A stretch of 64,000 bases of DNA, from positions 16,122,001 to 16,186,000 of the forward strand of contig CM075988.1 of assembly GCA_038087875.1 (NCBI GenBank), read 5' to 3'. Position 1 is the stretch's first letter. The number at the start of each line of letters is the position of its first letter. The translations under genes were made by a program, and so were the position numbers. Below the pieces are notes generated by a model. The model worked only from the letters and a program-made list of their open reading frames with translations. It did not search any database and had not been told where the DNA came from. Positions 7,853-63,026 of the stretch are shown piece after piece. The stretch is from Malacoraja senta. Lineage: Eukaryota.

Positions 7853-8066
7853 ATGCTCTTCAAGGTGTCGAACCCGGACAGTTTGCACGATCAGAGCAGC
7901 AATGACAGCGGCATCGACGACTGCCTGCGAAGGAGCAAATGGTCTCCTGCGGCCATTCCCAGACAATGCCCGCAACTGAGTCCATCCTCTCCCACCCGGA
8001 CCGTCTCCAAACACTGCAAACGCGGACGAAAGACCACGCCGGACGCAGCAAACAGGATCAGGGCCG
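7853..8066 (+). CDS. Coding exon 1 ([23 protein letters not shown]...NRIRA)
   Basis: ATG at 7853 in a non-repetitive, CpG-richer segment; donor CCG|GTAAGA; phase 1 matches exon 2. No recognisable homology, so less certain. Confidence 0.65.
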
Positions 8067-14000: not shown

Positions 14001-17000
14001 TTCATTACTAAAACCGTCTGGTGTCTTACCATTTTTCAACGATTTTATTGTTTCACCTATTTCTTCGATTGTAATTTGTGCTCCGAGTTCCTCTTGTTCC
14101 AAAAGGTCAAGTTTTGGAAGATTACAATTATCTAAAAAATTATTAATTTTACTATCTTCTATTTTAGTTTTTGATGTATATAAATGTTGATAAAATTGAG
14201 CAAATCTTTTATTAATATCTTTAGGTAGTATTAGTAATTCACCATTCTCCGATTTAATTTTATTTATGGTATTTTCTTTTTCTTGTTTTTTCAGTTGGCA
14301 CGCTAACAGCTTATGTGGTTTGTCACCAAACTCAAAATGTTCCTGTTTTGTAATTTGGAATAATCTTATTACTCTTGCCGAGAGAATTCGATTAAGTTTA
14401 AATTTCAGTAATATTATCTTATTATGTTTATCTATAGTGGAGTCTTTAGCATTATCTAACTCTAACTGTCTAATTTATTGTTCTAGCAACATTTGTTCTG
14501 TTTTATTCTTTTTATTTTGAAAAATTTTGTATGAAATTATAATTCCTCTAATAAATGCCTTAAAAGTTTCCCATAATAAAGAAGGCGAGGTACCTGGTGT
14601 ATCATTTATCTCAAAAAAAAATTTCATTTGTTGTTTTAAGTATTGATAACCTTGTAAGTCATTTAAAATATTTGTATTAAACCTCCAAAAAAAGTTTTTA
14701 CCCGGCATTCCCTCAAATTTTACTGAAAAAGTCAACGGAGAGTGATCAGAAATACTACTAATGTGGTATGTTGGATTAATTGTATATGGCATTAATTTCA
14801 TATCCACTAAAAAATAATCAATTCTTGAATAAGTTTTATGTACCGAAGAGTAAAACGAGTATTCCCTTCCTACTGGATTAGCAGATCTTCATACATCTGT
14901 TATATTAGTATTTTTTATATATGTATTTAGAAGTTCACTAGTCTTAGATTTTAAATTACTCCTCCTTTGTTTTACTGATTTGTCTAAGTATGGATCTAAA
15001 ACACAGTTGAAGTCCCCCCCTATTATCACATTTTGGTAATTAAACTCTAATATATCTATAATTTTATCAAAAAATTGGGGGTTATCAAAATTCGGAGCGT
15101 AAATATTTATCATAGTTAGTGGGGTTGCATAAATTTCTCCCGAAACTATGATGTACCTTCCCTCTTTATCTGATATAGTGTTCTTTAATTTGAAAGGTAT
15201 ACCTTTTCGAATAAGAATAGCCGTACCTCTAGATTTAGAAGTAAATGACGAATAATATGTTTGACCTATCCACTTCGCCTTTAATCTCATTTGTGTTTGC
15301 TGTTTCATGTGGGTTTCTTGCAAAAAGATTATGTCGCTTTTCAAAGATTTTAGGTGAGCAAAAATGTTACCCCTCTTTATTGGTTCATTGGCACCCCTTA
15401 TATTCCACTACAGAATGTGATTCCTCCATTCTTTATTTGTCTATCGTCTTGCATTATATATCAAAATAGTATTCCTGAATCATATGGTGCAAGCAAATAC
15501 CTCAGAGTTCTGGGTGTTGGGTGGTCATCCCAAGTTTTTAAGTTTATATTACATCTCCTTCTCCAAAAGTACCGTAGATAAAGAAAGAAAAAATGTGATT
15601 TAAAGTTGATTACAAAAAAACTAAGCAAATACAAATTTTTATAGTGATTTTTAAAAAAAAGTGAAGTTAAGGTATCTAAGAAAAGATACCTTAAAGACAA
15701 GTAGCCACCTAAGGTGGCGAAAAATTTATGGACTTCCGTTGGTGTTGTTTTACATTGAACTCCAATCCCTTATTAACACCTCATAAAAAGCTACAGACCG
15801 TCTCATATCTTGTTTATTCTTACTTAAATTTATCAAACTAGCACTAGTAAAAACCAAAAAGACTCAGAGAAAAAATGTTTAAAAAATAAAAAACCAAATA
15901 TAAGACACAACATATTCTCAGTTCTATAAGTATTTATGCCTTTCCAATTTATCTAACCAACTACCATACAAGCAGGTACCGAGGGGTTAAACAAAACCTC
16001 ATTCCTGGATCTTTTCCAAGTTTATGCTGCGCCTAACTCCTTCCCACACAAGAAAAATACGTTAGTAATGTTATAGACATTTTGGTTAATTACTATTTAT
16101 AAGCATATATCATTTATAAGTATATATCAGTAATATTAGTTCATTTCCCTTTTTAAATATATAAAATCATAACTTATACAATCCCATTATTTCTTTCCCC
16201 ACCTCATGGTTTATTCATGATTTATTCATATTTACTACATACACTCACAAATAATTAGTATTATTAAATTTGTTAAATTAGTTGGTTAATTATAATTAGA
16301 ATATAATGGTTAGATATTTTCTTAAATCAACAGTTAGTATTAATATTATCTCGTCCATGTCCCTTATACATTCCTTCATTACTTCTGTATCTTCAACGTC
16401 CTTTTGTTTATCTTTGAGCTTTTCATTCAAGGTGAAACATGGACAATGTTCTCAAATACACATTCCAGACAGATAAGCTCGGTAACTGTCTGGAAAAATC
16501 CACCATCTTAGCCAGTTCAAAACTCTATCTTAAAAGTTAAGAAATGCAATCTTCCTCCTCCTCGACATCTTCTTCCGATGTTTTCGATGCTTTTCTTACG
16601 ATATCTTCTGCATACTTAAAAGCTTTTTCGGGATCCATAAATGAGCGCTCAGTTCCGTTGTAAGTAATTTTCATTTTTGCTGGATAGACCACCCCATATC
16701 TGACATGAGGTATTCCTCTCAGTATGTTTCTTGTCTGTGTAAACAAGTTCCTTCTCTGGACGACCTCCGGAGGATAATTACGGAAAAATCGAATATTATC
16801 CCCACCATATATCAAATTCTCCCCATGGACAATCTTATTCAGTATAAATTCCACTGAAGAGATGTCGAGAAATTTCACAATTATCTGTCTTGGAGCAGCA
16901 TTTATGTCTCTTGAGACACGTCCAACTCGGTGAACGATATCTATTCTTGATTCTTCCGGCAGTTTAAAAACATCTTTGAGTAAGTCAGCAACGAAAGTAC

Positions 17001-20000
17001 GTGTTTGAGATCCATATCCTTCTCGCCCTTCTCTTACTCCAACAATTCTCAAATTCTGCCTTTCCGATCTCGCATCCAAGTCCAAACATTTGTCCGTCAT
17101 TCTTGCAAGTTTTTCTTCTTCAGCTTTCTTTGATTTTTTCAAACTCTTTATTTCCGTAATCATCTCTTTCATGTCATTTTCCATCTCTTCCATTCTCTCA
17201 TCAAGGTCGCCCATCTTATCATTTACACCAGTAAATTTCTTATTATAATCATTTTCGATTCTAACAAATTCTGATTTAAGTTTTTTATCACTCATTATGT
17301 TGCTTCTTCAGCTCCTTTAACTCACCACAAGCACCATCAATTTTTTGAGAGAATATCTCCATATTAGTCTCCATACTCTGCATCTTTTCCAGTGTCGTAT
17401 TAATTGTAGCAGTTATATCTAAAAGCATTTGCTTTACCTCCTTCTCCTTCTTTTCTCCTTTTGCAGCCATTTCCAGCACAGATCCTTGGCTGTAAAAGGC
17501 CTGTCTCACGAGTCTGCGGTCATTGGCGGCGAAACGGGAAGAATCTGCCGCCATAGACCGCGCACTCGTGAGAACGTACAATTCCCGGGCCGTGCGGCGG
17601 TGTTCCCAACACCGCGCGGTGCTAAAATAAAATCGACAATGTCGAAAACCATATACTCACCGCACAACCTCCACCAGTGATGCACAAGTGCGGCACGGCC
17701 GCCCGCATGGGCCGCCGCCAGTGTGGCTCGAGCGCCGTGCGTCAAACCTCCACTGCCACAGCCTCCACCAGTGAGGCACGTGCCGCCGCCAGTGAGGCAC
17801 GTGTGCTGCACGGCCGCAGGCACAGCCACCGCTACAGCTCCACGATCAGGATGGCCGCCGCCACAGCCGCCGCTGGTGAGTCACGTGCGGTGGGCCGACG
17901 TCATCGCAGTCGGCCCGCCCTTTTTTTTACTTACCGCAAGCACGTGAGACCCGCCGTGTTTGAATTAACTCGGCCCCCGCACAGCATCCGTGCGGCGCTC
18001 CGGTGGATAGGCTCGACGCTCTCGCCGTTGCCGCGCGGTCCTCGCTACCGGCGACGCCGCGCTTCACCGCCGATGACCGCAAACAGGTAAGACAGAGCCT
18101 TAAGACTCTTCTTCTGAGCCTTCTTCTGTTGTTTGCAGTATCCAAAACTTTTTCAAGCTGGAGACTTATAGTAGTTTTCTTAGGTGCTCGTGAGCTTTTC
18201 TCTCTTCTCATTTAAAAGTCCCGATTTTTACCGTTAAACTCCCGATTTTAGCGTCGTTTTCTGATGATGTCATGCAACGCCAAGCATATTTTTAGAATCG
18301 GTCCCGACTTTAAAACGGTTTTTTAGCGATTTTACGGGAGAGGAGCTCAATGCAGCGCCCTTAGTGTTCCATGGCGCTACCGGAAATCCTAGATTTCTTA
18401 GTTTAAGAGTAAATTTAAGTGCTATGAATAATCAGGTTTTTCTTGTATATTGTGTTCTTCAACTTTATTGGGGAGAGAAGGATCGTACCAATATTAAAAG
18501 GCAAGCAATCCTCTCTCTCCATTACTAACTAATCTACCTGTTGACATGAATTATCCAGCCAGTGAATTACTTTTTTAATATTCGCTGCCCAATAATAGTA
18601 CAAGAAATTGGGGAGCGCCAATCCACCGATTTCTTTGGGTTTACATAGATGTCGTCTATGAATTCTATGTGATTTATAATCCCAAGCTACTTCCTCTGGC
18701 AGCTTGTTCCATACACCCACCACCACCCATAGTTCAGCCTGATGATTATTCAGCACAGTTGGAACTGCTGAGGGTTTATGCAGGTGTGTCGTACGTTGCA
18801 AGGTGGGAGGGAGCAAAGTCAGCAGAGGCACACAGCCAACGTGTGGGAGGCAGTGGTGGGAACTAGAAAAATGAAAGGTGGGTGGAGAGGAGCCATTGGT
18901 TTGTCAGGTGGCTGAAGAATGTGCAATGAGTCGATGAGAAAATGGGATAATACTCATGGTATTTTATCCCACTTGTACATGGAATATAACTTATCCAAGC
19001 CTGAAAATACAAGTTTATATAATTCAGGCCTATAAAAATAATAATATACCTCATTATTATTGAAGTTTCTAATAATGTAAGCGTATTATTTTATATCTTG
19101 AATATAATACACTTATATTATAATATAATATTATAATATAATATTATAATATAATATAACAGTGTATATTAACATACTATATTAATATATATAATATGAT
19201 ATATAATAATATTATTTTCCATCCTAATATATTGAAGTCGCTGATGAGTCATGTAATGTGCCTGTTGAGAGATGAGGCATTGTTTTCCATTTGAGATTTC
19301 TTGGAACAGTTTGCGAAACTAAACATAGATCATTGATAGTTGGAATGGATGGGAGAATTGCTTGACTCGTGACCGGATACGCAGATTTCCTTTGCAGACA
19401 AAACAAGGATGTTCCACAAAGTGATTACTCTATCTTCATTCAGTAAAGGTAGCCTGAGCAGACATAATGCCAAACATGCAAGTAAAACACAGTGATGCAT
19501 GGAATAGGTTCCAAGTGCAGGGAAGGGAATGGAGACATTTGCAAGATCTTGCCAGTATTTTCATATTGCCAGCCTCTAATTCTGCATAGGTTATTAAGCA
19601 TTGGCTCCTACATAATATGCATCAGTTTATAATATGCCCCATTTAGTTTAGAGATACAGCATAGAAATGTGCCCTTCGGCCCACCGAATCCATGCTGACC
19701 ATTGGTCATCCATTCTCACTAGTTCTAGGTTATTCCGCTTTATCATTAGAGGCAATTTTACAAAGGCCAATTAACCTACAAACTTGTACTTTGGAATGTG
19801 GGAGGAAACCGGAGCACCTGTAGGAAAGCCACATGGTCACGGGCAGAACGTGTAAACTCTACACAGACAGCACTCGAGGTCAGGATCGAACCCGGGTCCC
19901 TGGCGCTGTATGGCAGCAGTTCTACTTGCCCGCTGTTAAAAGTGTATTCTCACATACGTCCTTGGATGGAATCAAATGAAAGGCAAGAGGAAGGGATGCC

Positions 20001-23000
20001 TGGGGCAAGTGGTATAGATTAAGATGCGGCAGTGAGAGTTGTCTGCTTGGAAGACAAGAGAGGTGGATAAGAAGGAGATGATGAGGATGGCAGGGGAAGA
20101 CCTGTGGAGTGTGGAGGCCAGAAGATGAAAGACTAGAGGCCAAGTCGCCGAATGTTTTTAAGAATGAGATAGTGAGACATATTCTGGGACACGAAAAACT
20201 TTGTTAAGATATGGGGAGAAAGTTGGATTGTGGTACTAAACTGGAGGATCAACTATGAACGGCAGAACAGGCCTGAAGGGCCGAGTGGCCTGCTCCAGCT
20301 CCTGTCTGCCTATGTTTCTATGAACGACTGGACATAATAGTTTGATGAGCTGGTTTCAAAAAGAGAAGGGAGCAGTGGTATAGTGGTTAAAAGGAGGTTA
20401 TCATAAAAATGCCTGAACTAATTATCCAAAGACATGAGTTTAATGCTCACCGGAGCAGCTGTGCAATTAATTAAGCAAATCTTTGGAATTAAAAATCCAT
20501 GGGCCAGCATTCAATTCTTTGAAGTCAGTGCTCAGTTGGATTAAATACGTGACAAAAATATGAATTTCCAGAGTCCACATTTTCAGTTCATTATCAACCC
20601 CTTGGATACCTCTAATGCATTTCATAATTAATGTTAATTCCTAACTGGATTTTATTTCATAACCAGATGAGTCTGAAACTATTCAGATGCTCACTTCTGC
20701 TATACATCACGAGAGAAGATTCTTAATATTACCACTGTGCAGGAGGTAATTTTATTTCAACATTCAAAGGTTTTTTAATGAGGTGCAAATAATAAGCAGG
20801 CAAATAACTTTTCTGCACGAATATATATTAACTTTGATGCTAACATAAATTATTGTTAGCTAGTATAATTCGATTAATATTGGCAACACGGACATTTTAG
20901 GTTATTAGAACTGCACCAAAATTCGCGGCTTTTTTGTAAAATTAAACGTTCTTTTTTCCTTAGGCACAAATAATCAAAGTAATTTAGAATCCCAAAAGAT
21001 GTACCTTGGAGTCAGAGTTCGTCTGCCAGTCCGAGATCTTCTCCACAATTATCGCAAAGCCAGAGGAGAAGACCCCAAATCCAACCAGGTACAACATAGG
21101 CACCATTCCAGCTGCACTTCAAGTCCATGTTTGAGGGATGTATTCATCAGACATGGGAGCAGAAGTGGGCCATTTGGCCCATCGATTCTACTCCGCCATT
21201 CAATCATGGCTGATCTGTGTTTCCCTGTCATCCCATTCTCCTGCCTTCTCCCCATAACCCTTGACACCCTTACTAATCAAGTGTCTGTCAATCCCTGCTT
21301 TAAAAATACCCAAGGAAGTGCATAAACTTGAGCTTTTAAATTACCACTTTGAAACAGTGAATGTTGGTGTGAAATGTAACATAGACAGGAAAAAGTGTTT
21401 AGAGATACAGCATGGAAACAGGCACTTTGGCCCCGCCGACCATCAATCACTTCCACCATTTCCATGTTATTCCACTTTAGCACCCACTCTCTATGTATTC
21501 GGGGCATTTTACAGAGGCTAATTAACCTACAAACCTGCATGTCGTTGGGATGTGGGAGGAAACTGGTGTGCTAGGACGAAACCCATGCGGTCACAGGGAG
21601 AGCGTGCATACTCTGCACAGACAGCACCCGAGGTCAGGATCGAACCTGTGATGCTGGCATTGTGAGGCAGCTGCTCTACCTCTTACCAATTATGTTATCA
21701 GATTGTCTTGACAATATTTTCCTGATAGTGATAAGGAATTTCAAATACTTAAAGTTTAGTCATTCAGAGTTTAACTTTTGTTTGAAGTGGGGATGATTAA
21801 AGGTATTGTGTTTCTTTCCCTACAGGCAGATGTGGCCTGCAAATTGAATAATGGTAAGCGATTCCGTTTATTACTGGAATCTACCTAGTTTTGTTTTATA
21901 GTATTTATGAGTGTGTCTATTGTATTTTTTGCTGGCTTTATTTCAGAAAGAAGACGTGTTGTCAAGGATTTGATGCATAGTCGTCCATGTTCTGCTAAAG
22001 GGAGCAAACAGGTAAGGACTCTGTAGCTCCTAGAATATGCAGCCTCGACACGTCTAGATGGGGCTGAGGCCCCATCTCATCCTTTGTTAGCGCCCCAGCC
22101 AGATCCCTTCCACCAATGTATTCATTCACCTGGCTGAACTTATTCACACTTTAAAAATGCTCTCTTTCAGCTCCACTCGCTTTCACCAGATCCACATTCA
22201 CGCTCACATGCACCCACGCTATTTCCTGATTTTATACGGGGTACCTGGAACAATCCTTGTTTCAGTCCCTCTTGGGCCTCTTCCCCCAACTATTTTTCCG
22301 GTACATTGATCACTATGTTGACACTTCTTCCTGTGGACATACAGAACTCAAAAATGTCATCAGTTTGATGCCACTTTCCACCCTACTTCCACCTCTGACT
22401 CTTCCCATCTCTTTCTGCATCTTTTCATCACCTTCTCAGGGGATAGATGAGCAGCATACATCCATTACAAGGTCACTGACTACAGCCCACAGTGTCTACA
22501 GCCATACTTCCCTGCACCCTTCCTCTTGTAAAGGCTCCCTTCCATCTCCCAGTTCCCAAGTCACAGTCCAATCTGGTCTGGTGATGAGATTTTCCTCATT
22601 GATGCCTCTGAGTTAACTTAGTTCTTCCTGAACCAGGACGACCCACCTACCATAATTGACAAAGCCTTTGACTGCCTCTCGCCCCTCTCCATTTGGGAAG
22701 AAGAGATGGAGAGTTTACTTTGCACCAATCTTTTCATTCAATGGATCACTTCCCACGACTTCCATCTCCTTCGATGAGATTCCAGAACCAGACACATCGT
22801 CCTCTTCATCATTCTGAAGACTGTTCCCTTTGCAATCCTCAAGTTCATTCTTTCATCTCCCATGCAATCACAGGAAACGCAACACCTGTCCTTGTACCCG
22901 TTCCCTTCCCACCACTCAGGGACCCAAACAGTCCTTGCAAGTGAAACAGTAAACCGCTTTCATTTCTTCCAAACCAGTTGGTTTGTATTCAGTGCTCACA

Positions 23001-26000
23001 GTGTGACTTCCTCTATACTGGACAAATTAAATGCGGATTGGGGTGCCCGCTTTGTGGAACCCCAGCGTTCAGTCAGCAGTGGTGACCCAGAGCTTCCAGA
23101 TGCCTGTCACTTGACCTCCTTTCCACTCTCACTCGGACGTGTACATGGTCTACAGCACTGTTGTAATGAAGCCTCATCTTCCACCAAGATGTGTGGCAAC
23201 TTTCCAGATTCAATATAGATTTCAACAACATCAGCTGACTCCACCTGTTTGTTTCTAGCGAACTGGCCAATTCATCTGTTGATTATTCTGCGGTATTCAA
23301 TTCTGTTTTTCTCTCTCAATTAAACCTGCTGGGCATTTCCTTCAGTCTGACTGCATTTCACATTTGCAAGTCCCTGTGTTCCCTGTCCACTTGCCTTTAT
23401 TAATCTATCAACTAGGTATCTTCATCAGCAGTGTTTCTATTGGGCAACCCTGTCCTCACCCCACCAGAGATATTCCCTTTGTTGTTAAGGGGCTGTCCCA
23501 CTGCGGCAACCTAATCTACGAGTTTAGAAGAGTTTGCCCTCGACTCAAACTCGCAGCATGGTCGACACGTGGTCCTAGGAGGTCCTATGAGATCACTGGA
23601 TTGCTCGAGGGAAGTTCCCACATACTCGCGGCCTCAGTTTGGTCAAGGAAAGTTTTTCAGCATGTTGAAAAAATCTCCGCGAGTAAAAATTGGTCAGCAT
23701 GGTTCTTTTGAATTCGTAGTGCAGTGGAGTGGGGTCGCTATGTAGTTACAGGCAGTCGAGGGCAGCCGTAGGCAATCTCCTTTGCTGACCGGGCATTTTA
23801 ATTGGCTCATTGGAGTTTTCAGGACCAAGGAAAACCGACGGGTGATTTAAATGCCCCCCCCCTTCTCTCCCCTTCTGCTTTTGTGTGTATGTGCGTGTGT
23901 GCGTGTGTGCGTGTGTGCGTGCGTGCGTGACTCTCTCTCTCTCTCTCTCAATCCAGCCCGAGGTTTTCCAGGCGAGTGCCCTCGAGCTTGAAGGTCAAAG
24001 ACAGTCGCTGAAAGGTTGCGTCAGTGGGACAGGCCCTTTACAATCCCTCTCCATCCTCTCTGCAACCTCAATAACTTATTTATTTCTCTTTCACAATTCT
24101 GCCAGACTTCAGCCTGAAACGTTAACCCTGTTACTCTTTCCACAGATGCTGACCGAGCTGCTAAGTGTTTCCAGCATTTTCTGTTTTCTCTGATTGCCAG
24201 CATTAGTAATGTTGGTTTGACTTTTCAGAAGAGAATTAGTGGTAGCTGCACACTTTTGCCTTTGCCTAGGGAATGTTATCATGTTATATTTAATGGAAAT
24301 GATACCACTTCTAGTTTAGTTTAGAGATGCAGCATGGAAACGGGCCCTTCGGCCCACTGAATCCATGCTGACCAGCAATCATCCGTACACTCGTTCTATG
24401 TTATCTCAGTTTTGTATCCTACATATTAGGTGCAATTTACAGAAGTCAATTAACCTACAAACCTGCACATCTTTGTAACGTGGCAGGAAACCGGTGCAAA
24501 CTGAGAAAACCCACGTGGTCACAATGACAACTTGCAAACTCCACACAGACAGCACCCACGGTCAGGATCAAACCCAGTCTCTGGCGCTGTGAGGCTGCAA
24601 CTCTACCGCGTAAAGGACTTCCTTCTGTCAGTGTCGTTTGTGAGTCAATCAGTTGGGTTTTGATGATAGCGCAATGGTTTTAAATTTAAAAAAGAGGTAA
24701 AAGCTGGAAATGCTCAGCAGGTCCGGCAGCATTTGTTGAGAGAAAACCAGCAACAACACTACCCTTCATCAGAAAGTTAAATTACCTATTTTATACTATT
24801 TTTCACATTTCTTTGAAGTTAAATATAAATGTTTCACTTACCCTGGTGGGATTTGAATCCATGCTTTATGGTGTTATGGGAAATGCCAAAAGCAATGGGT
24901 TATTTCTCATTTGTGTTAATAATATCATGATTGTATTCCTCATTTTGCTAAAGACATCTTCAAATCTTTGACTCTGGCAGCTTTCCCGAATCAATATGTG
25001 GCTTCTTCTCTTGCTTGCCTTTCCAGAGAACAAAGATAAATGTTTGGCCGCCAAGAAATTTTGAAGATCTGTTTGAAGATTTGGTGGAGGTTCTGGAGAC
25101 GGATCTGAAGCAAGGTGGGCCATGCCCCCTTCAGGGGCAGATTGGAGTGGATTGTCCACCGAGGTGTTACATGGGCTGTCCCGTCTGCCTCAGAGACTTG
25201 CACTCCAGAAACCAACGCCCCCCTGCTCTCCAAACTGAAGACGCTCACCCAGACCTGGTATCTCCATCTCACAAACCCTATTCAGGTTCAGAATGTGAGT
25301 TTTGGCACGGTTCACCTGGCGGGTTGGTAGCCTTTGGAGGTGAATGCTGTGTCAACATGGCTGATGAAGTGAGACCCTTCAGTCATCATCACTGCTATTC
25401 CCAGAACACCAAGCATCAATCTCATCCTCATTCTCCGTCGTCGGAGGCTAAAGAATTTGGTCAGGCTGCATTGAGTATTGTCCACAGCTGCAAACGGACT
25501 CGGGGTGAACCTAACGGCAACACTGGAAGCTCGGTGTTGTCCTTCTTCCAGTTTCAACTGCAGCAACTCGAGGGTAGCCTCGCCGCCCTGTCGGCTGAAG
25601 ACATTCTGTCCGTCGACAAGAACGGCAACACGTGAGTTGAGCATCCATGGAAGCTTACAGCATAGAAACAGGCCCTTCTGCCCAACTTGCCCACACTGGC
25701 CAACATGTCCCATCTACACCTACCATCTACACTAGTCCCACCTACCTGCATTTGGCCCATATTCCCTAAACCTGACCTATTCATGTACCTGTCTAAATGC
25801 TTCTTAAACCTTACGATAGTACCCGCCTCAACTACCTCCTCCAGCAGCTGGTTCCATACACCTACCACCCTTTGCGTGAAAAAGTTACCCCTCGGCTTCC
25901 TATTAAATCTACCCCCTAAACCTATGTCCTCTGGTTCTCGCTTCCCCTACTCTGGGCAAGAGACTCACGATCTATTCCCCTCATGATTTTATACACCTCA

Positions 26001-29000
26001 AAAAGACCACTCCATCATCAACTTGCTCCGGTGTTATTGCAGAGGACAGACCCTAATGGCAAAAAGAGAATGAATGACTAAATCCTTCAGTTCAGAAGCC
26101 CATTTGACCCATTCAAAGTACAAATCAATAAAAGTGCAGCAAAAAATAGTTTTAGTTAATTTATTGTCACGTGTACAGTGAAAAGTTGTTGTTACATGCC
26201 AACCAATAGAGTTCTAACAAAGAGAGATGGCTCGAACAAAATTGTTGTTTTGCCTAGTGCAAAGATTATTTTAATGGATATTATTGATAATGAATATTAC
26301 ATTTGAATGCCAGAATCATTTGTGAATATTAATTTATCCATGCCATGTAGATTAATATAGTTTTGTCTAATGTGAATTTTAGAATACATACTTTTTGACA
26401 TTGCATTGTACATTTAGCACAGATAGGCCAAAAGGGCAATTTTTGTATTTAGACTAAGGTCATCTCCCTTGTTCTGTTGTCATGTGACATAGAACAGTAC
26501 AGCACAAGCACAGGCTCTTTGGCCCGCAATGTCTATGCCGACATGATGCCAAACCCAACTCTTATCTGCCTGCACATAATCCATATCCCTCCGTTCCCTG
26601 CATATCCATATGTCTATCCAAAAGTATTTTAGCTGCCACTATCAGGCCTCTCAGCCACCAACCCCAGCACATGTTCCAGCACTTGCCAACCTCTATGTAA
26701 AAATAAAATGCCTTGCACATCTTGTTTAATCTTTGACTCTCTCACCTTAAAACCATGCCCTCTTGTACTATATCTTTCCATCTTGGGGAAAAGGTTCCGA
26801 CTGTCTACCCTATCGATGCCTCTCATAATCTTATATACATCTATCAGGTCTCCATGAAACCTCCAGTCTTCCTGAGAAACACCGGAGGTCCTACAATGAA
26901 ATGTGGTTAGCTGATTTTCATTGGATAAGTGCCTTGTTCATTTGCCATGTTAAGTTTTTCCACGGAAGGCACTAGTGGGGAACCTTTGCTTGCCATCAGC
27001 ATTCATGGAAACTGAGGGGCAAAGTACTTCAGAGAAATCACCCCAGCTTTCTATGCCTGCTATCCCATGAAAATCCAAAGACAAACCACAGACGGCACAG
27101 TGGTACAGCTGGTAGAGCCACTGCCCCACTGCGCCAGAGACAAAGGTTCAATCCTGACCACGGGTGATGTCTGTGTGGAGTTTGCATGTTCCCCCCTGTG
27201 ATTGCGTGAGTTTCCTCCGTGTGCTTCAGTTTCCTCCTGCAGCCCAAAGACATGCAGATTTTTGAGTTCATTGGCCTCTGTAAATTACCCCCAAGTGCGT
27301 AGGGAGTTGATGAGAAAGTGGGATAACATAGAACTAGTGTGAAAGGATCAATGTGTAGGAAGGAACTTGGAACTGCAAATGCTAGTTTACACCAAAGATA
27401 GACACGAAATGCTGGAGTAACTCAGCGGGACAGGCAGCATCTCTGGATAGAAGGAATGGGTGATGTTTCAGCCAAGACCATGCTTAATAGTCAGGTGGGC
27501 TGAAGGGCCTGTTTTCACGCTGTATCTCTGAACTAAACTATACTAAGGATTTTGTTTGGGAACACGTACAGTTTCTTCCTGATTAAATGACCAGTGTGGG
27601 AAAATACAGTGTTGCATTGTGAGAGTTCCAAGTAATAGGTATAGTTCAGAACACTGTAAATAAGCACACATTGGATGTATTACATTTCTTCCAGGAAGGC
27701 CAACCCATTGTATGTTTTTATCTTTGAACACTGGAGATAAATTGAATACAATGCTTCAGCTAACATTTAATATAGTCTCAGTGATAAGAATGAAGTACGG
27801 CTGTAGTTTGTTTCACAAGATGAATTTAGCACTGCATTTCAAAAATACATTTTGTTTGCAAAACAGGTCATTTTTCTACAGTTTAGTTATCATTGGAATT
27901 TATGTACAAATTGCAGATAAAACTAATTTGGTTAGATTATTGAATGCTTACTTCTATGCTTTGCAGCCTTGCTAACAGACTGTCCGTTATTTATTCTGAT
28001 AGATTGCTTCATTGTGCTGTCATTCAGGGAAAGAGAGCACACACTTACAGCTTAGCCTGTAGGATGTCCGACATGAATAGAATTGACACAAAGGATTCCA
28101 GTGGTCAAGTGAGTAAAAACGTTTTTGGAAATTTCTGTCACATTGTAGTTTACCTTCCCAGAATTATCTTCTGGGCTCCCTATTTATGGATGTCTTTGTG
28201 GTAAATTAAATAAATACATAGAAAAAATAACTAATCCGTGAAGTCTTAACTACATCGTGAATTTTAGAGTATGCTTTATTCCCAAAGTAGACGCCACAAA
28301 TTAACTGTAGTAGTTCTTGCAAACTGAAACTTATTGCAATCTAATACTCGGCTTCAATCTGCACTGACAATGTTTAGAAAGAGCTGCACATTGTTATATG
28401 CCCCCAATTTTTAAAGTTTTATGAAAAATAGAATGAGACCATGTATCTTGAGAGTCGTGACGGGAAGCTAGTTTCCACACATCACATTATCAATTTCACC
28501 TTGTCAAAATAAAAGAGAGCTGCTGGAGGAACTCAGCGGGTCAGGCGGCAACTGTGGAGGCAAATTTCCAAGGTATGCAAAGAGTCACCACACAAAGGGT
28601 GGAGACTACGTTACAAAGTATCCTGTGCCAGGTCCTCCTTTGTTGTCCCCTTCTCCCCTCCAACCCCACCTTCCTCGTCCCCCCACGCCGTGCCCTCCTT
28701 TGTCGTCCCTCCCACCCTCTCCCCACACCAGGTCTTCTTTTGTTCTTCCCTCCCCTTGTGGCGTATCCATGTAACCTTAAGTTGTTGACACCTGCAGGAA
28801 CTTTATGGTGAAAATATATCAATTGTTGTAAAGCTCTGCATGAGAGGGCACTGAAACTATATGTCTTTAATAGGGAGTAGTTGGAATGGAAACTCCTGAG
28901 AGGAGAGGGTGATTTAGAGTTCCTAATGTAGTAATTCTGCTCTTTTTGCCTGCACAGACTGCTTTACACTTGGCTGCTGAACGAAACCAGCACCTGATGG

Positions 29001-32000
29001 TCAACGATCTTATTTCACTCGGAGCTCAGATCAATGAAAGAGACTTTTTAGGGAGGACTCCTATCCACTTGTGTGCAGAGAATGGGTTTCTCCGAGTATT
29101 GCAGGTATGTCAAGAGGAAGTTGGTGCTTAAATGCTGGGCCTTGGGCAAACTTCACATCTATTGATTACTCGCTGTCCCTGATGTGTTAATCCAATAATT
29201 GATCATTGCAGGTAATAGAGAGGACCCTGAAAAATGGAACAGACGTTGACATTGATGCCAGGGACAACAATTGTAAGTTTTATTTTTTTAGTAGTGGGTA
29301 TATGGAATGAGCTGCAGGAGGAGGTAGTTGAGGCAGGTAGTATAACAATATTTAAAAGACATTTGGACAGGTGCATGGATAGGAAATGTTTAGAGATATG
29401 GGCCAAACGCAGGCAGCTGAGACTGGTGCAGATGGGGCATCTTGATCAGCACGGGCAAATTGGGCCGAAGGACCAGATTCCATGCTGTTTGACTCTATGG
29501 CCCTATCTTTAGTGGTAGTAATTTCTCGTGAGCCTGGATTAGATTTACTACTGTGTTGATTGCTATAAACATGTGTAGTACATCCATGAATGGGATAAAT
29601 GTGTGCGCAACCATTTCTCCCAGTATTCTGTTTCTCCACCCCCCCCCCCCCCTCCACCTAAGTCCCTCCCTCTGGTTTCACATCTCACTTCTCTCTCCTT
29701 ATCTTACACCCTTTGGTTCACTTTCCAGCTTTCTCCCCCTACTATAACCTAAAGCATTACTTATCCATGTTCTTCAGAGATGCTTTCTGACTTGCTGAGT
29801 TACTCCAGCACTTTGTTTTTTTTTTGTAAACCAGAATGTACAGTTCCATTTGTCTACATGTAAGTGTGACTATGTTTAGCAACTGTGTGTGACTAGCTGT
29901 TGCCTTTGGTCTACAGGCCTTACCCCATTGCACTATGTAGTGTTGGCTCACATTGCAACAGTAAAGGAGTTTGAGAACTTGGGGAAGGACAGCGACATGC
30001 TGAGGTTCCTGGAGCTGAGGAAGGAGCAGCTCCTAGATGGAATGAAAAGCCTGCTGAGGATGGGATCTTCTCTCTCCATGCAGGTATGACAGGTACCACA
30101 TTGTTCCATTTTAACCAAGAGTTGGCAGAACATTATTGCCCTGAATTCTATGGAAGTAAATTATCACTGAATTAACATTGGAAACATAGAAACATAGAAA
30201 ATAGGTGCAGGAGGAGGCCATTCGACCCTTCGAGCCAGCACCGCCATTCATTGTATTCATGGCTGATCGTCCCTTATCAATAACCCGTGCCTGCCAGAGC
30301 AAGAACTATATCAATTTATAATTGATATATAAATCTCTATAATGATTGCTTTTTAACAGCACATTTTGTATTTGCATCTCCCGTAATTTACACATTATGA
30401 ATAAATAGTAGCTTGCCAGCTGCAAAGCAGTACATATGAGTAGCACCTTGTATTTTGACAAGGTGTCTTAAGATGCTTCATAGGAATATACAGACCTAAG
30501 TTGACATGGTTAAGACTGAAAAACTAGGTTAAATAGGTAGCTTTTTAGGAGTTCTCCAAAGGATTGGGACCTGGTGAGAATTGTCCCACAGCCTAGTGGA
30601 CGACCCGGGATCCATAAGTGAAATGCTGGTACCCTATTGGAAATCCGGCCAGCACCCTTGGCACAGGAAGTGAGAGATAAAGGGGAAATAAATGAAGGAC
30701 TTCAAAATTAGTTGCAATTAAGAATTTAAAGAACGTCACTCATCTGAATGATATCTTCTGTTCATTTCCTCAAGGATATAAATGGACGTAGGGCCATTGA
30801 CTTTGCAGAGGAAGAGAATGACACTGAAGTTCTGAATTTCCTTTGTAATCATGTTGAGAAGATGAAAACCCTTTCCCACAAGGTACACTGCATTCAATAA
30901 AACCAAATGAAGTGTGCTTGATTAATTTTAATGCCATAATTTAGCTAACAGTTTGTGTTGTCTCAAGCTCAGTATTTTAATAATTATCATGATTACAGAA
31001 TGTTTTTACCAATAGTTGAGTAAGAGCTATTCAAATGGCTGTATGGTAACTCAAATTTCACTACACGCATGTGACAATAAATGTGAACTTGAACTTGAGT
31101 TACATATTCTTAAATGTAAGGTACATAGATTGGTAATATACAATCACCAAAAAATAGACCCTCAGGCTTTGAATCAGGTTATCTGACCCAGCCATCTAAT
31201 ACCACATCGCTTCACTTTCCACACAGCCCTGAGAGAGTAGAAGTAATAGCGACCTTGCAAAAAAGGGCTCATTTAGAGCCGTAATCAGAGAATCAGGCCT
31301 TGCAGAAAAGAGCTGTTCAGCCCACCATGGCCTTGATCATCATGTACCTTTCCATATTAATCCTACTCACCAGCACATGATCTTGTAGCTTTCTATACCT
31401 CGGTGAGAAGTCATTCATTTAACTGAATTGTGTAAGCAATATATCAGTCAAAACATGACCTGCATATTGCTGTTTGAAACAATGACAGAATGTACAGTAG
31501 ATCCCTCTTCAGTCAGAGTCAAGTTAACGAAGATGTTTTACAAAGTTGGTCTAAAGAAGGGTCCTGACCCAAAATATCACCTGTCCATGTTCTCCAGAGA
31601 TGTTGCCTGACCTGCTGAGTTACTCCAGCACGATAAGATTTTTGAACAAAAAGCTCCCATGTGCCCAATCTTTCACATGGAGCTATATTTCCTCTCGCTT
31701 TTATTAAATGAAAGGATTGATCTCCCAGATTTGGGTGAAGGTGTGCACAATCTTGTTACACTTAACTTTGTGCAAGACTAGTTGCAGGGAATCCAGGTGT
31801 TAACAACTCATTTGTACCAACATTTATATCAAACGCACCCAGCCCATTTGAAGCTGAATAGTTTGTCTCAACCTGCCAGGAATTGTGCAAGGGTTTGAAG
31901 AATGCTGCCAAGGCATTTTCAGAACAATGTGTTGGGTTGGAAGATTGCAACCTTCACGAGGTCCGCCCTGTTTCGACGATTGCAATCAACCTGGCGTGCA

Positions 32001-33981
32001 CAATCAAATAAGATCAAATAGAACAAGTTGTTCTACAACTTTAGGCTGTGCACGCCATACGCAAGAAGAAGAACAATGTGTTGAAGGACTGGCACTTACA
32101 ACCTCATACCTGGGAGAGTTTGTCCTGATAGTGGAATACTCATTTCATTCACTGAGGAGCCATTATTTTCTATGAAAGATGGAAGAGGACATTTGCGCAC
32201 ACAGAAGCAACAAGCAATATGGATGTGGGCTGAGATCATGGTCTTTCCATATTTCCTATATTGTGCAAGAACAAATAAACAACAAAGAAAACACGGTTTT
32301 GGGGGGAATTTTACAAATAATAAGAGACAACAAGGGAAAAGACATATTTTCATTTCCAGTCTTGTTTCTATGGTCTGTTTTAAATCCTAAAATTATTATT
32401 TTTATTCTAAAAATTGTACATAACAGCTTTCAGAAAATCTTAAATTATTTCTTTGACCCCTGAAATTATTTGTTAAACCAAGGTAGTTGCCCTGCTGCTT
32501 GTGGGCAGGCTAAAGGGGCTGTCCCACTGCGGCGATCTAATCTGCGAGTTTAGAAGACTTTGCCCTCGACTCAAACTCGCAGCATGGTCGACACGTGGTC
32601 CTAGGAGGTCCTATGAGGTCACTGGACCTCTCCTTCATGCTCGAGGGAAGTTCCCGCATACTCACGGCCTCAGTTTGGTCGAGGAAAAATGTTCAGCATG
32701 TTGAAAAATTTTCCACGAGTAAAAATTGGTCGGCATGGTTCTTTTGAACTCGTAGTGCAGTGGAGTGGGGTTGCTATGTAGTTACAGGCAGTCGAGGACA
32801 GCCGTAGGCATCTCCTTATCTAACCGGGCATTTAAATTGGTTCATTGGAGATTTCAGGACCAAGGAAAACCAACCGGTAATGTAAAAAGCCCGCTAAACT
32901 TTATTATAAGTTGTCTGGATTCTTAAACGTGTCTCCACTCTTTCTCCCCCCCCCTTCTCCCCCCCCTTCTCCCCCCCCCCTTCTTCCCCCCCCCTTCTCT
33001 CCCCCCCCCCTTCTCTCCCCCCCCCTTCTCTCCCCCCCCCCTTCTCTCCCCCCCCCCTTCTCTCCCCCCCCCCTTCTCTCCCCCCCCCCTTCTCTCCCCC
33101 CCCCCTTCTCTCCCCCCCCCCTTCTCTCCCCCCCCCCTTCTCTCCCCCCCCCCTTCTCTCCCCCCCCCCTTCTCCCCCCCCCCCTTCTCCCCCCCCTTCT
33201 CCCCCCCCCCCCTTCTCCCCCCCCTTCTCCCCCCCCCTTCTCCCCCCCCCCTTCTCTCCCCCCCTTCTCTCCCCCCCCCTTCTCCCCCCCCCTTCTCCCC
33301 CCCCTTCTTCCCCCCCCCTGCCCGCGCTCTCTAAAGGACTTACCGTACACTGTGCAGCCGTCTTTTACCTTTCTGTTCATCGCGGGTGTAAATTTCAGAC
33401 AGCGCTCCCCCGCTTTCCCTGGCCCCCGCCTTTGCGATGTATTTGTGTGTGTGTGTGCGCGGTCGGTCGATCCAGCTCGCGGTTTCATCGCTGACGGTCG
33501 ATCCAGCTCGAGGTTTTCCAGGCAAGTGCCCTCGAGCTTGAAGATCGAAGACAGTCACTGAAAGGTCGCGTCAGTGGGACAGGCCCTGTAACATTTGATA
33601 ACTGGTGAATTTCCAAAAGGACGTTGAACAAGCCACAAAAGTGCTGGAGTAACTCAGCAGGACAGGCCGTGTCTCTGGAGAATATGGATAGGTTACGTCT
33701 TAGGTCAGGACTCTTCTTCAGACATGCCACAGTTGTGTTATTGTGTTCTTAGCATATCTATTGGGATTGAATTTCTACCCAATCTGTGTCTATACAGTAG
33801 AATATAAAATATATAATACATAAATACAAATCAGTAAAATGACTTGTTCTTCTTTGTATCTCTAAAGGATCATGGCTTGTGTGCAACACTCAGTCCAATA
33901 AATCAGAAAGCAGAGTTATTCTCAATGGCCCCTGAGCTGCCTCCTTGCAAAAATTACAAGCAGCCCAGCAATGTGCCATGA
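7853..33981 (+). CDS. nfkbiz-like: Spliced gene for an IkB-zeta/IkBNS-family protein (OCA peptide + truncated ankyrin domain), 11 coding exons, 579 aa
   Basis: Exons 7853-8066, 20964-21088, 21826-21853, 21947-22011, 25027-25631, 28003-28108, 28958-29104, 29212-29272, 29917-30083, 30775-30882 and 33868-33981 join in frame (1740 nt) across GT-AG introns. Peptides match human IkB-zeta as recalled: [31 protein letters not shown] ~ [48 protein letters not shown] ~ NQHLIVQDLVNIGAQVN. Ortholog versus paralog is not resolved. Confidence 0.88.
8110..8632. mobile_element. Penelope-like element fragments in inverted arrangement
   Basis: Terminal repeat on - strand, then + strand [23 protein letters not shown], a PLE RT-thumb region. 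Confidence 0.7.
10286..11572 (-). mobile_element. Older L1-clade LINE, 3' part (5' part at 18397-18685), split by the L1 at 11580-18389
   Basis: ORFs 10675-10929 and 10926-11285; T-rich tail ~10286-10320; the LKLRNLSL-coding sequence rejoins across the insertion. Confidence 0.9.
13943..14026. repeat. 41-bp tandem duplication inside L1 element A ORF2
   Basis: AAATTTTTTATAAAATTCATTACTAAAACCGTCTGGTGTCT occurs twice, 43-bp period. Confidence 0.85.
17496..18100. mobile_element. CpG-rich PIF/Harbinger-type MITE inserted in L1 ORF1
   Basis: Imperfect ~40-bp TIRs (AAGGCCTGTCTCAC..TGCGGTCATTGGCGG / CCGCCGATGACCGCA..GTAAGACAGAGCCT); TAA TSD at 17493-17495 and 18101-18103. Confidence 0.82.
18397..18685 (-). 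mobile_element. 5' remnant of the older L1 split by element A
   Basis: [37 protein letters not shown] in ORF 18529-18831. Confidence 0.88.
19100..19217. repeat. AT-rich low-complexity tract
   Basis: Degenerate (TATAA/ATATT)n. Confidence 0.8.
20964..21088 (+). CDS. Coding exon 2 with OCA peptide ([23 protein letters not shown])
   Basis: Acceptor ttttttccttag, donor CAG|GTACAA. Motif resembles OCA-B YQGVRVKEPVKELLRRKRG and IkB-zeta FQGVRVKNSVKELLLHIR. Confidence 0.9.
21826..21853 (+). CDS. Coding exon 3 (28-nt micro-exon, ADVACKLNN)
   Basis: Acceptor tttctttccctacag, donor ATG|GTAAGC; phase 0 in, phase 1 out, which bridges exons 2 and 4. Confidence 0.75.
21947..22011 (+). CDS. Coding exon 4 ([22 protein letters not shown]; basic, possible part of an NLS)
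   Basis: Acceptor tttatttcag, donor CAG|GTAAGG; phase 1 in, phase 0 out. Confidence 0.78.
22200..23230 (+). mobile_element. Decayed Penelope-like element (RT and GIY-YIG remnants)
   Basis: YLEQSLFQS...LFFRYIDH (a YIDD variant), then a remnant of the GIY-YIG region ending ARFVEP. Confidence 0.7.
23488..24037 (+). mobile_element. PIF/Harbinger-type MITE, copy 1
   Basis: TIRs AGGGGCTGTCCCACTG / CAGTGGGACAGGCCCT; TTA TSD at 23485-23487 and 24038-24040. Confidence 0.9.
25027..25631 (+). CDS. Coding exon 5 (large linker exon ending in the pre-ankyrin helix ...[31 protein letters not shown])
   Basis: Lies within ORF 25015-25635; acceptor cttgcctttccag, donor AC|GTGAGT; the last ~30 aa are IkB-zeta-like. 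Confidence 0.9.
28003..28108 (+). CDS. Coding exon 6, ankyrin repeat 1 ([35 protein letters not shown])
   Basis: Acceptor ttattctgatag, donor CAA|GTGAGT; resembles IkB-zeta FLHIAVAQGRRALSYVLARKMNALHMLDIKEHNGQ. Confidence 0.93.
28958..29104 (+). CDS. Coding exon 7, ankyrin repeats 2-3 ([49 protein letters not shown])
   Basis: TALH and TPIH ankyrin motifs; acceptor tgcctgcacag, donor CAG|GTATGT. Confidence 0.95.
29212..29272 (+). CDS. Coding exon 8 ([20 protein letters not shown])
   Basis: Acceptor cattgcag, donor T|GTAAGT; phase 0 in, phase 1 out; corresponds to IkB-zeta ...VDLEATNYD. Confidence 0.88.
29917..30083 (+). CDS. Coding exon 9, ankyrin repeat 4 with the nuclear-IkB insertion ([18 protein letters not shown]...[18 protein letters not shown])
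   Basis: Resembles IkB-zeta GLTPLHCAVIAHNAVVHEL...SLVDTIKCLIQMGAAVEAK; acceptor ggtctacag, donor CAG|GTATGA. Confidence 0.93.
30775..30882 (+). CDS. Coding exon 10, degenerate ankyrin repeat 5 ([36 protein letters not shown])
   Basis: Acceptor catttcctcaag, donor AAG|GTACAC; resembles IkB-zeta [25 protein letters not shown]. Confidence 0.85.
32514..33587 (+). mobile_element. PIF/Harbinger-type MITE, copy 2, with internal expanded pyrimidine tract
   Basis: Same TIRs and internal sequence as copy 1; TAA on the left, GTAA on the right. Confidence 0.9.
32939..33318. repeat. Pure C/T minisatellite, approximately (C7-10TTCT[CT])n
   Basis: ~380 bp with only C and T on the + strand; G-run array on the - strand. 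Confidence 0.95.
33868..33981 (+). CDS. Coding exon 11, non-ankyrin C-terminal tail and stop ([10 protein letters not shown]...KQPSNVP*)
   Basis: Acceptor ttctttgtatctctaaag, open in phase 0, TGA at 33979-33981, strong donor G|GTGAGT at 33983. Confidence 0.7.
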   Translation, partial: DHGLCATLSPINQKAELFSMAPELPPCKNYKQPSNVP

Positions 33982-34440
33982 GGTGAGTGAGACCCTGTAC
34001 AAACACCATTTTCTTTATAAACAACAGAAACTCCTTTTAAATTGTTGCAGCTGATTTTAAAGTCTGAAACATTCATTCTTGTGCTGCTCACAAAGTGGTG
34101 AAAGAAATTAAATATGGTTATTTTTCCTTATAGGAACTCGTGAAGATTTGAGAGATGCTCAAGGAGTCGATAAGTAAACGTCACTGTGAATCTGAGCTGC
34201 GGCTGACACCAAAGCCTAGGCCTTTTTGGGATGGACACATGGAGGGGTGAAGACCTAATGGTTAAGTTATAGGATCAGCAGACTGAATTCTGGCCATTTT
34301 ATCCAGTAGATGTGAATCCCACCTTGGCAACTGCAAATTCAAGTAATTTGGAACTTGCAAAAGAAAACTATTCTCAGATATTGTAATCATGAAACGTTTA
34401 AATGATTGCAAAAGCTTCTCCGTATAACTATTGATAGAGA

Positions 34441-34574
34441 CAAAATGCTGGAGTAACTCGGCGGGACAGGCAGCATCTCTGGATAGAAGGAATGGGTGAA
34501 GTTTTGGGTCGAGACCCTTCTTCAGACTGAATGCAAAGATGCTGCCTGTCCCGCGGAGTTATTCCAGCATTTTG
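34441..34574. repeat. Inverted pair of Penelope terminal repeats (38-bp arms)
   Basis: 34441-34478 versus the reverse complement of 34537-34574 match at 36/38. Confidence 0.88.
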
Positions 34575-35349
34575 TGTGTATCTTCAGTTTAAACCAGCAT
34601 CTGCAGTTCCTTCCTACAACATTTTGTCTGTATAATGATTGTTCTTTAGTGGAAGAAATCTGCCAATATTCCCCTCCCTGTATATATGACACCTCAAAAC
34701 TGTCAATGCAATGGACTCCTCATTTATCATTTCAAAGCTCCATTAGGGACGGACAATACATACTAAAATTGCTCTGAATGTTCACAACTGGTGAATGAGT
34801 AAACTCCAAATCAGTCATTGAACTCCAAATCATTGTGAATAACACCTGAATGGCAGTAAAATCATGTTTTGTATAAAACTGAGCATTAACATAAATAAAC
34901 GAAAATCCAAAAATGAACACAAGTATATTGGATGCATTCTAAACTTTGACTAACACATTTTGTGTGACTTTTGCATAATTGCATTTTTGAAGACATCAAT
35001 TCAGTGCAAGAATTTACTTTCCTTCAGCACAACTCAGAATATTAAAAATGCAACCAGGATTAACAGAGTTGCAGTTAGTACAGAACTGAGAAGTCCCCAA
35101 CAGATTTGGAAATCAAAATTGTTATGTTGAAGATTCTTTGACAAATTATTTACTTGGATTAAATATTTCACTTTTGCAGTTGGATGTGACATATGTTTAA
35201 CAGATACCTCTATAATATGTGTTGCCAACCCGACTAAACTGAGCTATGAGGAAAAGTTGATCATAATGATGACTTGTATTGCCTTCTGGTTACCAATGTG
35301 TCAAATTAGTATGTTTTATCATGTAAGAAAATGTGATTGTTTTGAAAAC

Positions 35350-62836: not shown

Positions 62837-63026
62837 GATCTTGACAGGTGGGTACATGGTTGTTGCATAAAAATTCCTAAATTTTCGGCTGAATGTTTAT
62901 TGCAACAGATTTCTAGGAATAAAAAGAAAGCATGTTTGTACCAGAAGATGTGTCATCAGAATCCAAGCCCACGGATTTCTACGAAACACTGCCTGAGACT
63001 AGCATCATTGCATCAGCATGGTAAAG
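62837..63026 (+). other. Candidate exon of an unidentified downstream transcript
   Basis: Strong acceptor tttctttcttcctgtctttcag and donor AAG|GTGAGT; one frame is open throughout; no recognised homology. Confidence 0.35.

Follow-up and report, generated by a model that had tools for sequence, protein, structure and literature searches.

An OCA motif is described for four proteins in one review (PMC12807641), namely the ankyrin-less OCA-B, OCA-T1 and OCA-T2 (POU2AF1-3) and IkB-zeta, and both this review and another (PMC11393961) state that IkB-zeta binds POU factors through this motif. For OCA-T1 a structure and a full mutational scan have been reported (PMC12755459, with the scan in supplement file 2). 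The gene analysed here, which lies in a window (the whole stretch of DNA examined) of 64,000 nucleotides from the skate Malacoraja senta, resembles IkB-zeta in that its product combines an OCA motif near the N-terminus with a disordered middle part, a capping helix and ankyrin repeats 1-5 including an insertion in repeat 4. It also shares a nuclear IkB-type ankyrin domain, and thus the subfamily, with IkBNS (NFKBID); in the part of PMC12074568 that is accessible, however, IkBNS is given six repeats and an OCA domain is not described for it. The gene is apparently a conserved but unstudied variant of the IkB-zeta design that is present and automatically annotated in databases: a search of full-text literature, whose coverage does not extend to supplements, returned no paper evidently describing its zebrafish or chicken orthologs (zgc:113279 and LOC428250) and no text in which 'OCA motif' occurs together with NFKBID. 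A survey of salmonid IkB genes lists nfkbiz, nfkbid and bcl3, and the terms '113279' and 'zeta-like' do not occur in its available text (PMC10299181).

Tblastn searches with shark and ray proteins, combined with splice sites, delineate an intact gene at 7853-33981 on the forward strand with 11 coding exons, ten GT-AG introns and an open frame of 579 amino acids (Table 1). The closest named protein is 'IkB-zeta-like' of Amblyraja radiata, with 93% over the ankyrin region. From the N-terminus onwards the skate protein consists of a low-complexity start, the OCA motif (Y85-R102), a basic stretch, an acidic helix, the disordered middle, the capping helix and an ankyrin part comprising repeats 1-4 plus a degenerate fifth; introns 1-4, which surround the OCA exon, are in phases 1, 0, 1 and 0. 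Where the skate gene has its TGA stop codon and the adjoining GT donor (33979-33988), relatives encode Gln-Gly, and the next exon (34134 onward) would add about 14 residues, so that the skate protein has likely lost a short tail. In many orthologs the basic stretch of exon 4 closes with HPY, whereas the batoids examined have PC; a basic...PY pattern is found in 13 of 37 rows, in three of these at another place, and resembles a PY-type nuclear signal.

Table 1. Features of the skate locus (positions within the 64,000-nucleotide window)
Feature	Position	Strand	Remarks
Coding exon 1	7853..8066	+	ATG at 7853; low-complexity N-terminus; tblastn 87.5% to Amblyraja P0008; GT donor
Long interrupted LINE-like element in intron 1	about 10900-17300	-	ORF1, endonuclease and reverse-transcriptase-like frames, read by eye
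Exon 2, carrier of the OCA motif, phase 1 to phase 0	20964..21088	+	tblastn and splice sites
OCA motif, Y85-R102 of the gene model = OCA-T1 Y13-R30	21002..21055	+	
Exon 3, 28 nt	21826..21853	+	tblastn and splice sites
Exon 4, basic stretch RRRVVK, possible nuclear localisation signal	21947..22011	+	tblastn and splice sites
Exon 5: acidic amphipathic helix, disordered middle, capping helix, start of ankyrin repeat 1	25027..25631	+	
Acidic amphipathic helix in exon 5	about 25060-25107	+	
IkB-zeta-type N-terminal capping helix and start of ankyrin repeat 1, in exon 5	about 25531-25631	+	
Exon 6, ankyrin repeat 1	28003..28108	+	
Exon 7, ankyrin repeats 2-3	28958..29104	+	
Exon 8, linker and end of repeat 3	29212..29272	+	
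Exon 9, ankyrin repeat 4 with IkB-zeta-type helical insertion	29917..30083	+	
Exon 10, degenerate ankyrin repeat 5	30775..30882	+	
Exon 11	33868..33981	+	stop codon TGA at 33979-33981; GT donor one base after stop
Likely last exon, presumably now untranslated (3' UTR)	34134..34900, end approximate	+	AG acceptor 34132-34133; AATAAA near 34893; sequence alone
Second long interrupted LINE-like element	43460-49200	+	ORF1, endonuclease and reverse-transcriptase-like frames, read by eye
CpG-rich stretch, likely promoter of the next gene(s)	58690-59090		GC box; splice donors on both strands
Strong exon candidate	62837-63026	+	the one strong exon in a rough splice-site scan of the window; ends in ATG GTA AAG

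None of the sequencing runs in which the gene occurs is recorded as RNA. In the RNA-like run X1, from a relative and of a kind that we guess, one contig stops at the exon 5 donor (25631) and differences are found at equal depth (13.2) in exons 9 and 10, so that splicing is weakly indicated. An ortholog of 594 aa, OCA motif included, is encoded on a Logan contig no longer than 2073 nt; introns would hardly fit into this length, which suggests that the contig derives from a spliced mRNA. Several predicted isoforms lack the motif (P0069, P0071, P0072 and P0082 of crows; P0007, P0011 and P0395): in those of crows the OCA exon is apparently translated in another frame, and the X2 isoforms of shark and reedfish start elsewhere. 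A splice switch for POU binding is possible on the basis of these predictions. In passerine orthologs (P0053-P0067, P0083-P0090) the disordered middle contains an expanding short tandem repeat (ECLLRNSPSQ-like).

A preliminary description had placed a divergent OCA motif on an exon of its own at 20999-21064 of the forward strand. Both points stand, as the translation matches the 22-residue peptide claimed and the 125-nt exon, which encodes about 41 residues, is flanked by AG and GT; merely the end has to be moved, since the codon of the final G (21065-21067) lies just past 21064. With a profile built from true IkB-zeta and lamprey motifs alone, the motif frame scores 21.1 bits (E 2e-5), compared with 6.9 bits for the runner-up among 2712 six-frame segments of the window and best scores of 4.6-11.6 across 20 block-shuffled windows. 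The sequence fits the PROSITE pattern of the OCA motif (PDOC52003), with the coil YxGVRV[KR] and the helix V[KR]xLLxxxR. Up to E 10, the motif matches OCA-T2, OCA-T1 and OCA-B alone in the PDB, each weakly (E 0.06-0.66), and its sole Pfam match is PD-C2-AF1 (POU2AF1) at E 0.12, under the cut-off of that family. Residues Y13, G15, V16, R17, V18, V22, L25, L26 and R30 are shared with POU2AF1-3 (9-10 of 18 positions identical). The tyrosine, the PV dipeptide and the final RG had been listed as common to OCA-B, but the RG is three residues out of register: the equivalent of the R in the final R(G) of OCA-B is the arginine of NYR (21053-21055), which is followed by K, and the RG of the skate motif lies three residues beyond this essential arginine. 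Beyond the motif no similarity between the skate protein and POU2AF1-3 was detected; unlike the ankyrin-less POU2AF family, the skate protein has ankyrin repeats, and its motif begins about 85 residues from the start.

The skate gene is an ortholog of zebrafish zgc:113279 and chicken LOC428250, and represents the skate member of this group. Our first protein search yielded 101 matches, 83 of them belonging to the zgc:113279-type family and the remainder being generic ankyrin proteins. Orthologs in sharks, bichir and gar carry the name zgc:113279 in NCBI/UniProt, and several have been given the automatic UniProt label 'OCA domain-containing protein'. A profile of the capping helix and repeat 1, run against 1.84 billion representatives (best 150 of 554 matches listed), retrieved both this family and true NFKBIZ, whereas a word-based search with repeats 4-5 found 14 cartilaginous-fish rows alone and no NFKBIZ. 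Thirty proteins were named by look-up (28 profile representatives and two rows of a search with a turtle query); the members among them come from coelacanth, lungfish, paddlefish, bichir, gar, teleosts, frog, caecilian, axolotl, squamates, alligator, duck and chicken (LOC428250). Overall, the family ranges over chimaera, sharks, rays, coelacanth, lungfish, ray-finned fish, amphibians, reptiles and birds. In contrast to IkB-zeta, no mammal was named for it among the matches listed; the best 120 of 858 rows of the turtle-query search are all turtle, bird or unnamed and are uninformative on mammals. Absence among the named matches listed suggests that the gene was likely lost in mammals.

Several databases call the orthologs 'NF-kappa-B inhibitor zeta(-like)', and the simplest reading would be that the gene is the skate NFKBIZ or NFKBID and nothing more. 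This is extremely unlikely. A family member and true NFKBIZ co-occur in Cetorhinus, Carcharodon, Lissotriton and Protopterus, in the first three on contigs of different length. In trees of the ankyrin region, which have no outside root and contain no named NFKBID sequences, the skate sequence is sister to Amblyraja (100/99) within a family clade (100/100) that follows the order of the species tree, and a branch with support of 99/97 (37 rows) and 100/100 (19 rows) separates the family from the group of NFKBIZ and lamprey. An AU test in which all cartilaginous-fish sequences were forced together, as orthology to shark NFKBIZ would demand, was rejected with p 6e-69. The family is thus a separate sister copy of IkB-zeta and not its ortholog, and the earlier suggestion of an old NFKBIZ paralog is supported. 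As both genes occur in sharks and in bony fish, the duplication, and with it the separation of the skate gene from IkB-zeta, predates the split between these two lineages; with trees lacking an outside root, it may or may not predate lampreys. With regard to NFKBID, Pristis pectinata has a third paralog (P0217, XP_051901330), which lies on a 10.2 Mb contig and is nearest to IkB-delta among the Atlas clusters. P0217, likely the Pristis NFKBID, is a separate gene with a long branch on the family's side of the tree. In trout, nfkbid is represented by genes of its own whose products have six repeats (PMC10299181), and E477 and H478, which IkB-zeta and IkBNS have in common (PMC11293385), are not kept in the skate family. 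The gene model of P0217 shows a short ankyrin domain and the second half of an OCA motif alone (HTVKELLQYHR), which suggests that the OCA motif was ancestral to NFKBID too. In a Danionella gene model, true NFKBIZ is fused to an LRR-IQ protein. We take the latter to be CEP97, a neighbour of human NFKBIZ at 3q12.

The motif is well conserved among orthologs, the strict pattern being present in 71 of 83 family rows and in 100 of 102 further rows (new rows among the best 120 of 858 turtle-query matches listed). In 38 family representatives, which were picked for carrying the motif, there is no variation at Y13, G15, V16, V18 and L26, 37 have R30, 37 have P21, and position 19 is R or K throughout. 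Position 14 is hydrophobic in all 38 of these motif-selected rows; this is the one family-wide novelty and distinguishes the family from IkB-zeta. The published scan (PMC12755459) was made on human OCA-T1 with POU2F3, one change at a time, and serves here as a proxy for the skate motif, in which Y13, G15, V16, R17, V18, V22, D24, L25, L26 and R30 are unchanged relative to OCA-T1. The nine skate changes score as follows: V12M -0.14, Q14L -0.77, K19R +0.29, H20L -0.31, T21P +0.14, K23R -0.37, A27H -0.71, E28N -0.59 and K29Y -0.06. Their mean of -0.28 compares with -0.21 for the wild type and with -0.96 to -1.72 for stop codons at these positions. By this OCA-T1 proxy, six of the nine changes are near or at wild type, three are intermediate (Q14L, A27H, E28N) and none falls in the null range. 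In the same scan K19R, T21P and K23R each rank 1 of 19 at strict positions, and K29Y is neutral. Compared with random changes at the same sites, the skate motif reaches p=0.0003 and all 15 distinct motifs scored reach p <= 0.0006, although conservative changes do better than this null, which makes it a lenient one. At position 25, M or I is found in 19 of 38 family rows, and L25I scores -0.93 in the scan.

Since three of the changes are the best tolerated at their positions, POU/octamer binding is likely, and we predict the motif to bind in this way. It had been proposed that the replacements of Q by L and of K by R could alter the POU or octamer preference. For K19R, which outscores the wild type, a change in specificity is unlikely; Q14L, by its intermediate score, remains a fair candidate.

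The ankyrin domain is shorter than that of IkB-zeta and stops after repeat 4-5. The best solved relative of the skate protein is human IkB-zeta (9bor; 181 bits by sequence, 43% identity; fold E 2e-14, rmsd 1.9), and the match spans the capping helix and repeats 1-5 and ends in repeat 5. The IkB-zeta-type capping helix ahead of repeat 1 is present, as in nuclear (atypical) IkB proteins. In the AlphaFold model of the Amblyraja ortholog, the ankyrin domain (about residues 326-507) is predicted with confidence, repeats 1-4 being mostly above pLDDT 90, and there are low-confidence helices at the acidic stretch and at the OCA motif (residues 94-104, pLDDT about 60). In contrast to IkB-zeta, repeats 6-7 are missing in 38 of 38 family rows; the repeat-7 signature occurs in none of these 38, compared with 12 of 12 IkB-zeta and two of two lamprey rows. 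The contacts of IkB-zeta with the p50 NLS named in PMC11293385 include D441 (printed there as 'Asp411' and read here as D441 from the 9bor numbering), D443, E477, H478 and R514. Of these positions, that of D441 at the start of repeat 1 is D in 35 of 36 family rows and that of R514 is basic in 35 of 36 (K in 33, R in 2). D443, E477 and H478, however, are changed: D is kept at 443 in 2 of 36 rows, E at 477 in 1 of 36 (D in 33), and H at 478 in none of 36.

These features bear on the question whether the protein is a second dual-use coactivator which, like IkB-zeta, bridges POU factors and p50/p52 on composite octamer-kB sites. The capping helix, D441 and the basic residue at 514 are conserved, repeats 1-4 are confidently modelled, and the p50 specificity contacts lie in repeats 1-3 and the p50 NLS according to PMC11293385. 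The family keeps repeats 1-3, so that p50 binding may survive, which makes this a real rival. On the other hand, repeats 6-7 are gone throughout the family, neither D443 nor H478 is retained, the shorter D takes the place of E477, and the IkB-zeta domain additionally contacts the p50 dimer interface. We consider a dual-use role possible, if somewhat doubtful; judged from the residues and repeats lost, NF-kB binding by the shortened domain is predicted to be weakened or redirected. An exact kB or octamer consensus was not found within 1 kb upstream of the ATG.

Alternatively, the protein might bind POU-octamer complexes and displace OCA-B, OCA-T or IkB-zeta without activating, i.e. act as a competitor or repressor, as the binding-critical motif positions are kept and the ankyrin domain is cut short. 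However, 29 of 37 family representatives share the acidic amphipathic helix encoded in exon 5, of which similar versions exist in lamprey and P0217; it would fit an activation or cofactor-binding element, so that we regard such a role as quite unlikely. That the helix is an element of this kind is possible, activation being a guess from its composition. According to the review PMC13043367, catfish OCA-B has an intact motif and yet did not activate.

A conserved motif that is predicted to work, combined with a shortened ankyrin domain, makes an additional POU coactivator likely, rather than a protein half-way to OCA-B. We thus favour, as a reasonably probable explanation, that the peptide is the conserved OCA motif of an intact IkB-zeta paralog (zgc:113279/LOC428250) whose product likely works in the nucleus to coactivate POU factors and is predicted to bind NF-kB weakly or in an altered way. 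By analogy with OCA-B, OCA-T1/T2 and IkB-zeta, the coil of the peptide (YxGVRVR) would run along octamer DNA while its helix (PVRDLL...R) would dock on the POU-specific domain of POU2F1/2/3, giving a DNA-dependent ternary complex of peptide and POU2F1/2/3 on ATGCAAAT. The acidic helix might then recruit the transcription machinery, and the capping helix and ankyrin repeats 1-4(5) would adopt an IkB-zeta-like fold with weaker p50/p52 binding or a different partner. The genome duplications of early vertebrates would have produced the gene, along with NFKBIZ and NFKBID, from an ancestor already equipped with the OCA motif and a full ankyrin domain, and this copy would later have been lost in mammals.

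A different history was put forward in the preliminary description, which saw in the gene an evolutionary intermediate from the 11q23 region, partway from IkB-zeta to the ankyrin-less POU2AF proteins. The shortened ankyrin domain would agree with this, but the motif does not: the skate motif matches OCA-B at 10 of 18 positions, compared with 13 for shark IkB-zeta and 11 for lamprey, and the family mean (11.3/18) is no higher than that of IkB-zeta (11.9/18), so that it is no nearer to OCA-B, OCA-T1 or OCA-T2 than IkB-zeta is. Y, PV and RG are not diagnostic, with Y13 and P21 each occurring in 5 of 12 true IkB-zeta representatives. Q14, common to the POU2AFs, lamprey and 8 of 12 IkB-zeta rows, is found in none of the 38 family rows, which indicates that the family motif is derived and not intermediate. 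The lamprey IkB-zeta-like protein XP_032820506 (P0169/P0245-P0249) combines an ankyrin domain of full length with an OCA motif that is complete (YQGVRVRCTVRTLLERQR), and the ankyrin shortening is therefore likely a loss from a full-length ancestor. In the available text of PMC13043367 no OCA-B is reported for lamprey; ankyrin-bearing OCA genes may thus be the older form, which fits an intermediate as well. Galliform orthologs are located on chromosomes of 5.9-6.6 Mb. From the similar size, we presume with fair but incomplete confidence that these correspond to chicken chromosome 24, the counterpart of human 11q23-25 and the site of the POU2AF cluster, but several other chicken microchromosomes are of similar size. 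NFKBIZ (3q12) and NFKBID (19q13) belong to the same paralogon as 11q23-25. A shared chromosome would show ohnology, however, and not descent of the POU2AF genes from this gene. Taken together, we consider an intermediate very unlikely. A broader scenario, in which the OCA peptide began on an ankyrin-bearing gene of IkB-zeta type and the paralog described here is the copy on the POU2F3/POU2AF chromosome, whose N-terminal exons gave rise to the ankyrin-less POU2AF1-3, is speculative and on present evidence unlikely. If it were true, non-mammalian jawed vertebrates would run a fifth OCA coactivator, the ankyrin domain of which would have traded NF-kB for another partner.

A possible marker for synteny is provided by turtle and bird (tinamou) gene models (P0024, P0038, P0048, P0109), in which the gene is fused to part of a large uncharacterised cysteine-rich gene downstream. 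Exons of the fused cysteine-rich part were not found in the window, and tblastn with this gene gave no match in the window outside the ankyrin gene. Likewise, 39 hand-picked frames among 364 unmasked candidates outside the gene had no Pfam match at a curated cut-off among the matches listed. The other features around the gene are given in Table 1.

The skate gene and its orthologs likely represent a fifth OCA-motif protein, which jawed vertebrates have widely conserved. In fish, reptiles and birds, many of the proteins currently annotated as 'IkB-zeta' belong to this other gene. With its shortened ankyrin domain, the family offers a natural experiment on the uncoupling of the POU and NF-kB arms of IkB-zeta. 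Together with the lamprey protein that combines OCA motif and ankyrin domain, it turns the origin of OCA-B into a question that can be tested by synteny.
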